From: Candidatus Aenigmatarchaeota archaeon
GTDB taxonomy: Archaea; Aenigmatarchaeota; Aenigmatarchaeia; CG10238-14; SCSR01
Length of the DNA stretch: 44,067 nucleotides
Direction: 5' to 3'
NCBI GenBank assembly: GCA_039090665.1
Contig: JAWCSL010000006.1
Span: 1-44,067 of the forward strand
Part shown: positions 14,501-17,500 of the stretch, piece after piece
Numbering within the stretch: the stretch's first letter is position 1
Layout of the letters: each line of letters starts with the position of its first letter
Program-made: the position numbers

Positions 14501-17500
14501 TCAAAAGCTTTTACAAAATCTAGTGTTTCAAAATTAAATTCAATTGTTCTTCTTTCTTGAGTAAGATTGAGCTTACATTTGAAATTACTGACAGCACCAG
14601 AGCTTAAGCTACAATCCAGTGGTACTCCAAGGCTGCTTGCATTGAATTTCTCTATTCTCCCTATCAAACTAAACTCAAAACTTTCTTCTGGTTTAGGAAA
14701 AGTTATGGTGAGCTTGACTTTAGCTTTTCCTTCTTCATTCAAAATGACATCTATCCCATAGTACTGAACTTGAGCAAAACCTATAGAAGAAAATAAGAGT
14801 AGAGTGAATAAAAATGAAACTAAAGCTAAAATCTTCACAAAATAAATGAGTTTTCTTGCCAATTTATCCTTTTCCCTACTTCAAAACAATGTTTATCTTA
14901 AGCCCACAGTTTGGACATCTACCTTCAGTTAGATTTACCTTTTTCACAACCAAGTTTTCTCTTACTATTAAAGGCTCCCTGCAATTATAGCAGTAAGTGT
15001 TTTGGTCAGGATGTTTTGGAACATTGCTTATATAAACAAACCTCAAGCCTGCTGACCTGGCAACATCAGCACACCTTTCTAGTAAAGAAACTGGTGTCAT
15101 CGGTAATCCAGAAAATTTGGGATTTGGATAAAATTGTAGCAAATGGAAAGGCACTTCCGAACCAAATTCAGTGTTTATTATTTCAGCCAATTTCCTACAT
15201 TCTTCAACATCATCCCCAATTTGTGGGATTATGGTGTTGGCAATCTCAAAAAATACCCTATGTTTTTTCATTTGTTTTAATGTACTTATGATTGGAGAAA
15301 TTTCCGGAATTAGACTGTACCTTTTCATGAATTCTTTACTTCCCGATGCTCTCAACCTCACGCTTGCTGCATCAAGATATTTAGCTATTTTTTTCACAGC
15401 TTCTTCGCTTAAATAACCATTCGTCACGAAAACATTCTTAAGATTGGACCTATAAGCATACTTGGCAATTTTGAAAGCAAACTCAAAAGAAATTGTAGGG
15501 TCTGTAAAAGAATAGGCTATACTACTACACTTCCTTTTTTCAGCCATTTCTACCACATCTTCTGGACTGAGCTTTTTTGCTTGCAAGTTTGTTAAAACAA
15601 AATCATCTATACAGAAATGTTCGTTTAGATCGCAACCCAAAGTTGAAACAGAAAGACTTTTCGTTTTTGGCAAAAAATGGAACAAAAACTTCTTTTCTAT
15701 CCATTCTTCGCTTACATCAACCACTTTTTCGTAATTTAAAGTGTAGAGCTTGTTGTTTACATTTTTCCTCACTTGACACAAACCAAGCTTGTCTTTAGCA
15801 ATAAAACAATTAGCATGACAAAGATCACATCGCACACCATTTCTTTCCCTATGCCAAAGCATTGCTTCTTGCATCTTCTCCTCCCCTTTTAAACCTAACA
15901 AATTATTATTGGTTGTGAAAAGAAATATAGATTAGGCCCCAGTAGCTCAGGTGGTAGAGCGGCTGAGATGAGCCGAACCTCGTAAGCAGTAGGTCGAGGG
16001 TTCGAATCCCTCCTGGGGCTTAAGAATTAAAATCTAGCATACAAAATAAAAATGAGGTGAAAAGATGGAAATCGTGCTTTCGATTGAGCAAAAGAACTTG
16101 CAAAAAGTTAAAGATTTGTTGTTAAAAGATGATGTGGTCTCAAGAGCAAGCATCATTTTCAAAGAAGCTAAAAGCTTGAACGGAAGAGAAGGGATTTATT
16201 GTTACATCTCTGGCTTAGAAGAGCAGTGTAAAAGGGCTTTAGAAAAAGTTAAAGTAAAAAATGAGAAAACAGGTGAAATTCTAGAAATAGCAAGAGAAGT
16301 CAGCGGTGAAGAAAAAGAGGAAGTGATAAGCAAAATTAAAGAAGAAGAAAACAGAGCTCTAGAAGGATTTGGTGGAATTTTTCGAGAATAATTTTAATTT
16401 TTTTAACAACTCTTCACTTAAAAACTATATATGCGCTGGTAGTCCAGTCTGGTCTAAGACGTCGCCCTGCCAATTAAAGCTGAACGGCGGAGACCCGGGT
16501 TCAAATCCCGGCCAGCGCACTTAAACTTATATTCTTGGTTTGCAAAATAATTTATTAGTTGGTTCCATGCTATTTGGTAGGAAGAAAGAAGAAGTTAAGA
16601 GAGAAGAAGTTCAAGAAAATGAAGAGATAAAGCTTCCGACAATTGATGAAATCAAGCAACAATTAGGAAAAATAGAAGTTCAAGAAAAAGCTTTGCCAGT
16701 TCCAAAAGTTGAAGAAAGCCCTGTTCAAGTAAGAATGGAAAAGAAAGAACTTGAAAAAAGAACAAGAATTGAAGAATTGAAAAAGTCTGTGCCTCTTTTC
16801 ATAAAACTAGAGAGATATGAAGAAATCTTGAGCATGATAGAAGAGCTCAGAACACTTTTAAGCCTAATCAAAAACTCTTTTTCAGTTCTTGATGAAAGTG
16901 AAAAAATAAAGAGCGAAATTATAGAAACTATAAAAGAAAATGTGAAAAAAATGGAAGAAAAGGTAGCTTCCTTAGACTCAAAATTACTCAAACCAACTGG
17001 ATATGAAGAAATGGAAGAAAGAATAGAATATAAGTCCAAAGAAATGGAAGATGCTCTTTCGACACTTAAATCGCAAATTGATAAACTCAAACAAGAAATT
17101 CAGTCCCTTGAGTAAACTTTTTCCATTACCATTTTTTAAAATTAATTATTGAGCAGGGGTAGCCAAGCGGTTAAAGGCGGCAGGCTCAAGTCAAGTTGAG
17201 CTTTGATTTCAAGATGAAAGAAACCTGCTGGCTTAGTGCCTTCGTGGGTTCGAATCCCACCCCCTGCACAAGATTTTCTCTTGATTTCAATAAAAAACAG
17301 AAAACTTTTGTAACAACTCAATAGAGTCTAAAAAAATCTAAATAAAAAAAGAAAGAAAGCTGAACTAAATGCTTCTAGAATACTTCTATCAATGTTTCAT
17401 AGACTATGAGTAGAGCTCCTAGCAAAGCTAGAAGCCATGCAACAAGCTCAAAAGCTTCTCTGAGCAAGCCAATTTGTGGTGATAGGTAAGCTACAACAGC

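Follow-up and report, generated by a model that had tools for sequence, protein, structure and literature searches.

Why should the intron of a tRNA gene hold both a stretch complementary to the tRNA's own anticodon loop and a pair of motifs resembling boxes D' and C' of archaeal C/D RNAs? The question is raised by the tRNA-Leu(CAA) gene of a Candidatus Aenigmatarchaeota archaeon (assembly GCA_039090665.1), located in the window analyzed here (positions 1 to 44,067 of contig JAWCSL010000006.1, 44,067 nucleotides). The source organism is a DPANN archaeon from a hot spring with a genome of 620 kb; the public sequencing runs listed for it are 11 hot-spring runs of DNA type, with no RNA run among them.

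A common core in the introns of six tRNA genes

The Leu gene is built as follows, N1, N2 and so on being the bases upstream of the D'-like box:

17153-17268, + strand: tRNA-Leu(CAA) gene with intron (Rfam tRNA, 49.7 bits; ARAGORN, Leu caa with a 32 nt intron)
17153-17190 and 17223-17268, + strand: 5' exon and 3' exon; wobble C34 at 17187
17191-17222, + strand: intron of 32 nt between G37 and A38, read from the sequence
17196-17201, + strand: antisense stretch N7-N2 (UUGAGC) against 31-36 (17184-17189); N5 at 17198 opposite C34
17203-17206, + strand: D'-like box UUGA, preceded by N1 = U at 17202
17207-17212, + strand: loop of the putative K-loop, UUUCAA
17213-17217, + strand: C'-like box GAUGA; the tail AAGAA (17218-17222) follows and ends in the 3' splice bulge AA/A (slash, splice site)

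An Rfam search of this gene at E values up to 10 returned the tRNA model and noise, and nothing else. Six tRNA genes of this genome carry introns of 30-40 nt at 37/38 with a common core: the antisense stretch is followed by U and NNGA, and a loop of 5-6 nt separates NNGA from GAUGA and the A after it. A preliminary description of the genome had listed these six genes and their shared D'-like and C'-like boxes; the Leu gene was confirmed at 17153-17268 (+), the other five lie where it had placed them, and U-NNGA-(5-6 nt)-GAUGA-A is present in all six. The window also contains the Gln and Trp genes:

7759-7871, - strand: tRNA-Gln(UUG) gene; intron 7794-7833 (40 nt); wobble U34 at 7837
7818-7826, - strand: Gln antisense stretch N2-N10 (GUCUAAAGC) against 31-37 and the first two intron bases
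7802-7816, - strand: putative Gln K-loop; D' CAGA 7813-7816, loop UAAAAA 7807-7812, C' GAUGA 7802-7806
31978-32080, + strand: tRNA-Trp(CCA) gene; intron 32016-32045 (30 nt); wobble C34 at 32012
32021-32026, + strand: Trp antisense stretch N7-N2 (UGGAGC) against 31-36
32028-32041, + strand: putative Trp K-loop; D' CGGA 32028-32031, loop UAAAA 32032-32036, C' GAUGA 32037-32041

Distribution of the introns and their host tRNAs

A covariance model (R1) built from the six copies of this genome matched 62 of the 69 genomes of the taxonomic family, in 26 of 27 genera. In a phylum sample of 151 genomes it matched 37, which belong to 5 of the 28 families. The recovery of 62 of 69 family genomes by a model made from six copies indicates that the family is real beyond chance. 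The guide-like introns extend as one family over a class of DPANN archaea, and the earlier claim of a family in many RNAs of one organism was correct but understated. Intron length across the family ranges from 28 to 48 nt, and the hosts are the tRNAs for Met, Trp, Leu-CAA, Leu-UAA, Lys-UUU, Gln-UUG, Glu-UUC, Arg-UCU and Cys. Except for Cys, all are Y34 tRNAs of split codon boxes. They include all four tRNAs with a guide-methylated wobble base in Pyrococcus, as given in the accessible part of PMC7994747.

The antisense stretch faces nucleotide 34

Read by hand, the pairing upstream of NNGA in the introns of this genome covers N2-N7 in Leu and Trp, N2-N9 in Met, N2-N10 in Gln and N2-N11 in Lys. 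Nucleotide 34 is opposite N5 in each, as had been described for these five of the six introns. For the family alignment, 140 of the 144 listed matches outside this genome were fetched, and 145 of 146 sequences, the six own copies included, could be parsed. Positions 32-35 are fully paired by N3-N6, with 34 opposite N5, in 141 of the 145, a count drawn from non-independent relatives with a model that includes the 31-36 helix and its spacing and favors in-register copies; the remaining four are Cys introns. A census of five genomes with the tRNA model alone found the register kept in 25 of 27 K-loop introns. The register N2:31 to N5:34 proposed earlier is borne out by both counts, though not as an absolute rule: a 2-nt insert in the Lys intron of L210 puts it out of register, with N5 facing C32.

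The contiguous antisense duplex has 5-11 pairs (median 8). Helix statistics were taken on 131 distinct arms, N8 and N9 being outside the search model. N2:31 pairs in 127 of 131 arms (G:C 107, A:U 11, C:G 9) and N7:36 in all 131, with six pair types. Further out, N8:37 pairs in 90 of 131 arms against 74.9 in shuffles, and N9:i1 in 82 of 117 against 46.2, a value reached by 0 of 2000 shuffles, with compensatory changes at N9:i1 inside single tRNA types. No gain over shuffles was seen at N1:30 (86 of 131 against 87.8), nor any excess at N10 and N11. A formal count scored covariation at 0.495 against 0.173, with pairing in 99.6% of cells, the covariation at 34-36 being mostly between paralogous introns of different tRNAs. 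The helix also covaries with position 31 and, through N9:i1, crosses the 5' splice site. Since 36, 37 and i1, which are unpaired in the bulge-helix-bulge motif, here pair and covary, the antisense helix appears to be selected beyond the needs of splicing and to be more than a splice motif.

These pairs bear on a reading that we find improbable, namely that no RNP is involved: paralogous introns would have passed from one tRNA gene to another where anticodon loops are similar, the core being inherited sequence with a plain hairpin and the pairing a relaxed splice motif. Transposition of tRNA-gene introns has been described for the Thermoproteales, the introns of different tRNAs are alike inside one genome, and the host anticodons differ by one or two changes. 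However, the covarying pairs at 36, 37 and i1 run contrary to the splice motif, and a separate splice helix in the intron tail is under selection.

The helix is centered on nucleotide 34, which could also suit a protein-only enzyme to which the anticodon-intron helix would show that nucleotide, as for eukaryotic Trm4 on pre-tRNA-Leu(CAA), the K-loop serving as a protein handle or stabilizer. Yeast and man do have intron-dependent modification of 34 in tRNA-Leu(CAA), according to the available text of PMC4090602 and PMC11408192. We nevertheless regard this as very improbable, because hosts with both C34 and U34 suit a ribose methylase but poorly suit one base-specific enzyme, the same module in a 16S rRNA intron faces an rRNA U, and exact spacing from box D' to the target is a rule of fibrillarin guides (PMC1635284, in its accessible part).

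The Cys intron had been described as having the boxes but no guide. The boxes are indeed present, whereas the second half of that statement is weakened by the stretch UUGGUCU, which pairs with the last two intron bases and 38-42 and places C39 opposite N5; the complementarity is weak, as 379 of 20,000 shuffles equal it.

The box pair and a full-size C/D RNA

The C'-like GAUGA is kept in 139 of the 145 parsed copies and has lost its first G in 6, and the first two letters of the D'-like box are UU (97), CU (33), CG (7), AU (3), CA (2), UC (2) or UA (1). The statement that the two boxes never change accordingly does not hold, GAUGA being nearly constant and D' variable. N1 is U in 140 of the 145 copies, a pyrimidine at d1 faces G6 in 142, and the loop between the two GA measures 5-6 nt in 132, 5-7 nt in 137 and 2-3 nt in 8. 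Over five families of a class the core is constant, while loop, tail and 5' part are free to vary. Judged by its sequence, the D'/C' pair of the introns appears able to form a K-loop. A terminal K-turn of box C (RUGAUGA) and box D (CUGA) was found neither in the six own tRNA introns nor in the 145 parsed copies, which lack a box C 5' of the antisense stretch and a box D 3' of the tail, consistent with the preliminary description.

Two other structures were considered by hand for this hairpin. A conserved Watson-Crick hairpin CUUU:AAAG fails in Gln, Trp and the CUGA copies, where the K-loop register holds, and an H/ACA reading was rejected as there is no pocket and no ACA 3' of the hairpin.

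The loosest box pattern has 170 matches in this A-rich genome, and the family signal lies in the box context, not in the box pattern alone. That the loose pattern is often met by chance, and that part of the core admits Watson-Crick alternatives (CUUU:AAAG and, in Cys, UCUUUU:AAAAGA), would again suit inherited introns without an RNP. Against that reading stand the constancy of the core beside its freely varying surroundings, the Gln and Trp introns, which pair only in the K-loop register with C:G at d1:G6, and the presence of an identical box pair in a genuine C/D RNA:

G000:C1 (contig C1 of this genome), about 44079-44141: canonical C/D sRNA in the 16S-23S spacer, with terminal stem, box C, CUGA-AAAAA-GAUGA and box D UUGA

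A strict full-size C/D pattern gave one poor match in the genome and a looser one 16; two of these, in the rRNA operon, were inspected. The spacer RNA has two guides with 9-10 bp matches to 16S and 23S and is kept in 36 of the 69 family genomes, with an inner K-loop of the same form as in the tRNA introns. Its CUGA-AAAAA-GAUGA agrees with the introns in box letters, loop length and A-rich loop, and its box D is UUGA here, as in most intron D' boxes, and UUGA, AAGA or AUGA among its copies. Unlike the tRNA introns, it possesses a terminal stem and boxes C and D, and its two guides address 16S and 23S in trans. By this comparison, the introns carry as their box pair the module that makes up the inner D'/C' K-loop of this genuine full-size C/D RNA.

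An intron of the 16S rRNA gene has the same build

The claim that a 16S rRNA intron is aimed in the same way at its own 5' exon was upheld.

G000:C1:39604-39682: 16S intron with GGGUAUCU, then U, then CUGA-UUUAAA-GAUGA

The 8-mer GGGUAUCU pairs with AGAUACCC of the 790 loop, with a U opposite N5; shuffled 8-mers match the exon within ±100 nt in 5 of 5000 trials. The splice motif of this intron is perfect (CCCG:CGGG and CACGAG:CUCGUG) and makes no use of the guide, whose target loop is 8 nt away from it. Ten of the 11 relatives that could be read retain GUAUCU-U-CUGA..GAUGA, and other parts of the intron vary.

The guide helix conflicts with the splice helix

The tRNA introns are of the bulge-helix-bulge kind in relaxed form, and the enzyme that must excise them is EndA, encoded in the window:

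23832-24110, - strand: EndA splicing endonuclease, catalytic domain (PF01974, 94.8 bits), in an open frame of 191 aa

Beside the antisense helix, the canonical splice helix, which 32-35 form with the intron tail, covaries as well. The pair 32:(n-2) is C:G in 128 of 135 copies, 33:(n-3) is paired in 122 and 35:(n-5) in 94 (90 of 131 against 59.8 in shuffles in the 131-arm comparison), and U at n-5 is confined to introns with A35 opposite. The introns end in GAA/A in 95 of 145 copies. As position 34 is always or nearly always opposite A, C34 tRNAs reach at most three of the four splice-helix pairs, and the tail of the own Leu and Met introns supplies just two of four. N3-N6 of the guide occupy 32-35, the bases also needed by the splice motif, and constraining the fold to that motif costs 4-10 kcal/mol relative to the guide fold. 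From these counts and folds, the guide helix and the canonical splice helix appear to be mutually exclusive, both of them covarying. Because 32-35 are shared and the own Leu and Met tails give two of four pairs, a relaxed motif could also have the hairpin itself as its central helix and the K-loop hairpin as an inserted element, in which case the geometry of the junction could account for the fixed N5:34 spacing.

The conflict could point to another role for the K-loop, which would bind L7Ae to control or help folding and splicing and not for methylation, either delaying or timing intron removal, jointly with the helix over the 5' splice site, or scaffolding a three-way junction cut by a broad-specificity endonuclease. 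In the stable fold, a competitor of the splice helix, the 5' splice site is buried; the Cys intron has a K-loop without a guide to nucleotide 34, and Glu introns stop directly after GAUGA, so that the K-loop touches the 3' splice site. We consider this role unlikely, albeit the strongest of the alternatives, as it leaves unexplained the placement of N5 opposite 34 (141 of 145 copies; 25 of 27 in the unbiased census) and the 16S antisense stretch, whose target is 8 nt from an already perfect splice motif; the archaeal splicing endonuclease is not known to need L7Ae. Nor does it account for the choice of hosts, tRNAs with guide-made Nm34 elsewhere (PMC7994747, accessible part). In its favor, the available text of a preprint (bioRxiv 10.64898/2026.08.03.742641) reports that human intronic K-loop RNAs (klRNAs) with 15.5K suppress excision of the host intron. 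These likewise combine an intronic K-loop, an L7Ae-family protein and an effect on removal of their own intron; as described there, however, they are orphan RNAs of spliceosomal introns with terminal C/D motifs and no antisense target, whereas the present introns belong to the bulge-helix-bulge kind and keep a precise antisense register.

Proteins of the C/D RNP

Fibrillarin (289.8 bits) and Nop5 (215.3 bits) are both encoded in this genome. A special Nop5 without coiled coil for a half-size RNP was looked for and not found in this genome, where Nop5 is full length with its coiled coil and can be aligned from end to end with solved Nop5 chains. It is an ordinary dimer-forming protein, of which one K-loop fills only half. 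L7Ae is absent from this assembly (90.6% complete), as noted before: the sole PF01248 match is a gene between an RNA polymerase subunit gene and nusA, read from these neighbors as L30e-type. All 30 of 30 relatives have an L7Ae-type match.

Comparison with known guides

The guide intron of pre-tRNA-Trp in Euryarchaeota is about 100 nt long. As described in the accessible parts of PMC7994747, PMC4090602 and PMC11408192 (Haloferax volcanii; Pyrococcus sR50), it likewise sits at 37/38, is antisense to its own anticodon loop, places C34 opposite the fifth base upstream of box D' and has a guide pairing exclusive with the splice motif, with L7Ae-Nop5-fibrillarin as presumed machinery. It is a full C/D RNA in which boxes C, D', C' and D are all present and two guides serve C34 and U39. 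The introns here differ in having 28-48 nt, a D'/C' K-loop and one guide only, and in occurring in eight further tRNA kinds and in 16S rRNA; the second guide toward position 39, known on the box D side, is absent from the Trp introns here, and N5 faces C39 only in the weak pairing of the Cys intron. Going by sequence, they share with the pre-tRNA-Trp type a predicted 37/38 guide aimed at position 34 of the host and exclusive with the splice motif. Reviews treat that type as unique and confined to tRNA-Trp, and a literature search in one library found no K-loop-bearing tRNA introns beyond tRNA-Trp and no archaeal rRNA-intron guides.

Archaeal tRNAs carry Cm34, Um34 and s2Um34 (PMC7668247, accessible part). 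The Pyrococcus C/D guides for the wobble base serve Leu-CAA, Leu-UAA, Met and Trp, the Trp guide being the Trp intron (PMC7994747, in part). The full-size guides among them share the target position and three tRNAs with the introns here; as far as that text goes, they are separate genes acting in trans, whereas here the guide lies within the very transcript that it targets.

A single K-turn-type motif with a single guide is likewise found in synthetic half-mer or hemi C/D RNPs (Hardin and Batey 2006). The accessible text of PMC1635284 and PMC6239191 reports that such RNAs assemble with the proteins and bind substrate, and the latter cites a half-mer crystal structure (Xue et al. 2010). They differ in being man-made, with a stem-bearing K-turn, a target in trans and a reported activity that is poor or unspecific; according to the available part of PMC1635284, a hemi-complex with a single motif required high salt for activity in vitro and was no longer site-specific, and the two-motif architecture is termed absolutely conserved in nature. 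The introns here are natural and have a predicted K-loop, with the target tethered through a hairpin loop of 3-14 nt.

A possible modify-first, splice-later order

Taken together, we give roughly an even chance to the reading that these introns are reduced, single-K-loop box C/D guides for Nm34 on pre-tRNA. What speaks for this half-size guide, proposed in the preliminary description, is the anatomy, the conservation, the exclusive covarying helices, the box identity with the spacer C/D RNA, and the presence of Nop5, fibrillarin and EndA; the part that fares less well is the sufficiency of one K-loop, given the lost site specificity of the single-motif complex in vitro (PMC1635284, accessible part).

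If the introns are such guides, the antisense stretch would fold back on the anticodon loop during synthesis of the pre-tRNA, forming 6-10 pairs with 31-36 and often past the 5' splice site, and the adjoining NNGA/GAUGA pair would form the K-loop. L7Ae would bind it and be joined by Nop5-fibrillarin, and the wobble base, facing the fifth base upstream of the D'-like box, would be 2'-O-methylated by fibrillarin (Cm34 or Um34) while the tRNA is unspliced. As long as the guide fold stands, the 5' splice site would stay buried. Once the RNP is gone or remodeled, 32-35 would pair with the four bases before the AA/A tail in a relaxed bulge-helix-bulge motif, and EndA would excise the intron. We infer L7Ae binding, methylation and the order of events, and likewise that the guide acts on the same molecule and not on a second pre-tRNA held on the Nop5 dimer.

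The wider picture, which we put at slightly less than even, is that in a class of tiny-genome archaea the C/D guide may have shrunk to one K-loop and one antisense stretch lodged in introns, those of eight tRNAs and the one of 16S rRNA, with each precursor recruiting L7Ae-Nop5-fibrillarin to its own wobble base or 790 loop. With the 5' splice site buried by the guide helix, splicing would be possible only after the RNP has acted, a modify-first, splice-later checkpoint. This would be the first natural half-size C/D RNP and would overturn the view of two obligatory motifs, perhaps by way of two precursors per Nop5 dimer; working guides of this form would be the smallest natural ones of the box C/D kind. 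The "unique case" of tRNA-Trp would widen to most tRNAs reading split NNR codon boxes, and tRNA introns would persist in reduced genomes since the intron is a modification guide. On this model, eight tRNAs should carry Cm34 or Um34, the 790 loop of 16S should have a Um, and modification should be linked to splicing order in archaea. The introns would also offer a natural minimal substrate (about 50 nt, one K-loop, tethered target) for the site-specificity needs of the C/D enzyme, so far studied only with synthetic half-mers.

In the 16S intron, the same module would be directed at the 790 loop, which lies in the 5' exon of that gene. One relative has a 5-nt insert in this intron, by which the pairing is extended and N5 shifted by 5, and in that of relative G002 a second guide is followed by CUGA, the sole case of a further CUGA.

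A putative K-loop core in the introns of six tRNA genes

The tRNA-Leu(CAA) gene of the window is interrupted in its anticodon loop:

17153-17268, + strand: tRNA-Leu(CAA) gene (Rfam tRNA model, 49.7 bits)
17191-17222, + strand: its intron, 32 nt, between G37 and A38 (read from the sequence)

The five other intron-bearing genes of the preliminary description are real and lie where it placed them, Met-CAU on contig C1, Lys-UUU on C9, Gln-UUG and Trp-CCA in the window, and Cys-GCA on C13 of the assembly (620,606 bases in 15 contigs, 34% G+C, the window being contig C12), and its observation is confirmed and much extended here. 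From 5′ to 3′, the introns open with a variable segment, followed by a stretch complementary to the anticodon loop of the host tRNA, a U, a four-base D′-like box ending in GA (UUGA, CAGA, or CGGA), an A- or U-rich loop of 5–6 nt, a C′-like GAUGA, and a purine-rich tail with GAA directly before A38. The core can be drawn as a K-loop, with GA opposite GA followed by the pairs N.U, Y:G, and U:A; the Gln and Trp boxes start with C, giving C:G where the other introns have U.G. A plain Watson-Crick CUUU:AAAG pairing, which RNAfold chose in Met, Lys, and Leu, is impossible in Gln and Trp.

Counting intron bases upstream from the D′-like box (N1, N2, and so on), N2–N7 pair with nucleotides 31–36 in Leu and Trp; the helix is longer in Met (to N9), Gln (to N10), and Lys (to N11). 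N5 was said to face nucleotide 34 in these five introns, and it does so in all of them.

Distribution and register of the intron family

A covariance model built on the six copies (R1), which scores them at 32.6–50.7 bits, also found an intron of the 16S rRNA gene lying outside its training set (21.6 bits, second among the remaining matches in this genome). Within the taxonomic family (E up to 0.05), R1 matched 62 of 69 genomes and 26 of 27 genera, with ~232 matches; in a sample of the phylum (E up to 0.001), it matched 37 of 151 genomes and 5 of 28 families, and intron members from two other families had the same appearance. The K-loop introns are a large, old family. From the 144 listed matches outside the genome, 140 were fetched (the other 4 and 82 further matches being left out), and with the six own copies 145 of 146 sequences were parsed, all except L082.

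GAUGA is kept in 139 of the 145 introns and N1 is U in 140, while the first letter of the D′-like box is U in 100, C in 42, and A in 3. The loop is mostly 5 nt (89) or 6 nt (43), more rarely 7 nt (5), 3 nt (4), or 2 nt (4), and its sequence is free (commonest UAAAA, 32; AAAAA, 13; UUCAA, 10). The host anticodons are UUG (30 copies), CAA (24), CAU (24), CCA (18), UUU (17), UAA (16), UCU (7), UUC (5), and GCA (4); Cys excepted, every host has a pyrimidine at 34 and decodes the purine-ending half of a split codon box.

N3–N6 were fully paired with 32–35, with N5 opposite 34, in 141 of the 145 introns, a count biased by R1 itself containing the helix and the spacing; the four exceptions are Cys introns. 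As a check on this bias, five well-assembled relatives were searched with nothing but the Rfam tRNA model (150 of 188 matches listed), and the 31 long genes new to the set were read. Among the matches listed, there were at least seven additional K-loop introns, and the register was kept in 25 of the 27 K-loop introns of these relatives, the exceptions being one Cys intron and L210, a Lys intron; the other 24 long genes have introns of another kind (those of Tyr, those of Ile-UAU, or several short introns in one gene). L210 (tRNA-Lys-UUU of relative G028) has a 2-nt insert, which separates guide and box by three bases rather than one and puts N5 opposite C32 rather than U34, and is either a decayed or a retargeted copy.

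In the Cys introns (own gene, G000:C13:23315-23418; L112, L125, and L128 in relatives), the first seven bases pair with the last two intron bases and nucleotides 38–42. This places N5 opposite C39, the second target of the Haloferax Trp intron; support for the pairing is weak, as 379 of 20000 shuffles were as good. In one relative, its U.G is replaced by C:G.

Antisense helix and splice motif

In a bulge-helix-bulge at 37/38, 32–35 must be paired, and 36, 37, and i1 (the base that opens the intron) must be unpaired. We counted the helix pairing on 131 distinct arms against shuffles.

Pairing in the antisense helix
N2:31, paired in 127/131, shuffle mean 99.9; G:C 107, A:U 11, C:G 9; 31 lies in the anticodon stem
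N7:36, paired in 131/131, shuffle mean 61.2; six pair types
N8:37, paired in 90/131, shuffle mean 74.9; absent from the search model
N9:i1, paired in 82/117, shuffle mean 46.2, reached by 0 of 2000 shuffles; absent from the search model

At N9:i1, compensatory changes occur inside single tRNA types (Gln, A:U 11, U:A 7, and G:C 3; Met, A:U 6 and G:C 6), and the pairing fades at N10–N11. In a formal covariation count on 94 distinct rows, 99.6% of the cells were paired and four of the six pairs had changed on both sides, with a covariation score of 0.495 against 0.173 in shuffles for this alignment, which was fitted to R1. The pairing seen at 36, 37, and i1 makes the antisense helix more than the splice motif.

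A second helix is formed by the four bases before the terminal AA, which pair with 32–35, an arrangement shared with the ordinary short introns of this genome (CUUC:GAAG in Arg-UCG, read by hand). With n as the last intron base, 32:(n-2) is C:G in 128 of 135 introns and 33:(n-3) is paired in 122 of 135; position 34 nearly always faces A (U:A 60, C.A 59). The pair 35:(n-5) is formed in 94 of 135 (90 of 131 in the guide-bearing subset, against 59.8 in shuffles), and U at n-5 was seen only opposite A35. Both helices are thus under selection, and as they share 32–35 they are mutually exclusive. Nearest-neighbour energies make the guide fold 3.9–10.2 kcal/mol more stable than a fold forced into the splice motif, so that splicing would require remodelling, or an enzyme tolerating a relaxed form. 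In the Leu and Met introns of this genome, the tail supplies just two of the four splice-helix pairs. The Glu-UUC introns L121-L123 and L192, from two genera, end one base after GAUGA; their C′ box would have to supply the splice helix, and here K-loop and splice motif completely exclude each other.

The 16S rRNA intron

We place the 16S intron downstream of the 790 loop (E. coli numbering). Its own splice motif is perfect, with central helix CCCG:CGGG, inner helix CACGAG:CUCGUG, and bulges GU|A and AA|A. Within the intron is a hairpin whose stem covaries among relatives (GUUGGG:CCCAAC, CUUGGG:CCCAAG, CUAGGG:CCCUAG) and which bears GUAUCU-U-CUGA, a loop, and GAUGA. As previously proposed, the octamer upstream of the box is complementary to AGAUACCC in the 5′ exon, with N5 opposite its U; this pairing shares two bases with the splice helix. 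The guide is kept in 10 of 11 readable relatives having the intron, the rest of which is variable, and many relatives have no intron at this site. Splicing cannot account for this guide.

The two extra bases already noted in the C′ box of relative G053 are present, likewise in G001, and G067 has UAUGA. The G005 intron (L166) carries five extra bases in the first guide, which extend the pairing upstream and move N5 and its target by five. G002 (L168) has both guides, the second, antisense to the 790 loop, lying after C′ and before a further CUGA. Both introns look like turnover between full and half guides.

A complete C/D guide with the same module, and the protein machinery

The 16S-23S spacer encodes a complete box C/D sRNA:

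G000:C1, about 44079-44141, + strand: box C/D sRNA downstream of tRNA-Ala (sequence)

It consists of stem GGUU, UGAUGA, a guide, CUGA, AAAAA, GAUGA, a guide, UUGA as box D, and stem AACC; there is a 9-bp match between its D′ guide and 16S, and one of 10 bp between its D guide and a conserved part of 23S. The RNA is kept in 36 of 69 family genomes with box C, box C′, and the 23S guide invariant; the D′ guide is replaced in other genera. Its inner K-loop in relatives (CUGA-UAAAA-GAUGA and the like) shows that the intron module has exactly the letters of the inner module in a genuine C/D guide of this lineage, and its box D, varying between UUGA, AAGA, and AUGA, indicates that a relaxed first half of box D is normal here. 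This RNA is the best argument that the boxes of the introns are, as predicted, a real K-loop. Another C/D-like element lies just upstream of the 16S 5′ end (G000:C1:38770-38815, + strand: GAUGA, 11 nt, CUGA, CUCAUGA, 9 nt, CUGA).

Fibrillarin (289.8 bits) and Nop5 (215.3 bits) adjoin on contig C3, residues 1–351 of Nop5 aligning with solved archaeal Nop5 chains, coiled coil included, and the EndA gene lies within the window. The sole L7Ae-family match in the genome is an ORF of 94 aa flanked by genes for an RNA polymerase subunit and a KH-domain protein (neighbour names our own); from its position we take this ORF to be L30e. All 30 sampled relatives have such a weak match plus a strong one of L7Ae type (91–111 bits), so the missing L7Ae gene is likely a gap in the 90.6% complete assembly, as first suspected. 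A further frame gave a weak match:

32384-32518, − strand: weak fibrillarin-family match (26.8 bits) in a 224-aa open frame, 300 nt downstream of tRNA-Trp; probably another SAM methyltransferase

Possible function of the introns

The most likely reading, which in our estimate has an even chance of being right, is that the introns are reduced, single-K-loop box C/D guides. Acting on the unspliced precursor, they would direct 2′-O-methylation of nucleotide 34 (Nm34) and, from the 16S intron, of the U in the 790 loop, and the guide fold would additionally delay splicing; we infer all of these functional steps. Archaeal tRNAs with Cm34, Um34, and s2Um34 are reported in PMC7668247. According to the review PMC7994747, Pyrococcus has four C/D RNAs directed at the first base of the anticodon, in Leu(CAA), Leu(UAA), Met, and Trp; the one for Trp is the Trp intron, and each of these tRNAs hosts K-loop introns here. 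Two reviews describe the Trp intron as unique (PMC4090602, PMC11408192), and full-text literature searches found no description of the present intron family.

The chief weakness of the guide reading is the missing second K-turn. In PMC1635284, a complex with a single motif needed high salt for activity and lost its site specificity, which counts against a half-size guide; the authors of that paper hold that the two-motif architecture does not vary in nature. The half-mer RNP of a crystal structure was considered inactive (PMC6239191). By analogy with human intronic K-loop RNAs, which hold back splicing of their host intron according to a 2026 preprint (bioRxiv 10.64898/2026.08.03.742641), the K-loop might instead bind L7Ae with no methylation taking place; we consider this main rival rather unlikely.

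Other RNA features

tRNA-Tyr(GUA) (G000:C11:20207-20320, + strand; L194, L198, L204, and L211 in relatives) has its own conserved intron type of ~40 nt without the K-loop core. Read by hand, the own copy starts with CUGA and contains a GUGC/GCAC hairpin and, upstream of a CAGA, a stretch of 7 nt with complementarity to the D-stem/26 region. The window also holds an SRP RNA and five further tRNA genes of 82–95 nt:

18134-18420, + strand: archaeal SRP RNA (116.7 bits)
15936-16020, 16433-16519, 21567-21648, 24957-25045, 30006-30100: the five tRNA genes

These genes carry short inserts of 11–23 nt, several at non-canonical places, and ARAGORN misnames some of them as Pyl or as having a four-base anticodon.
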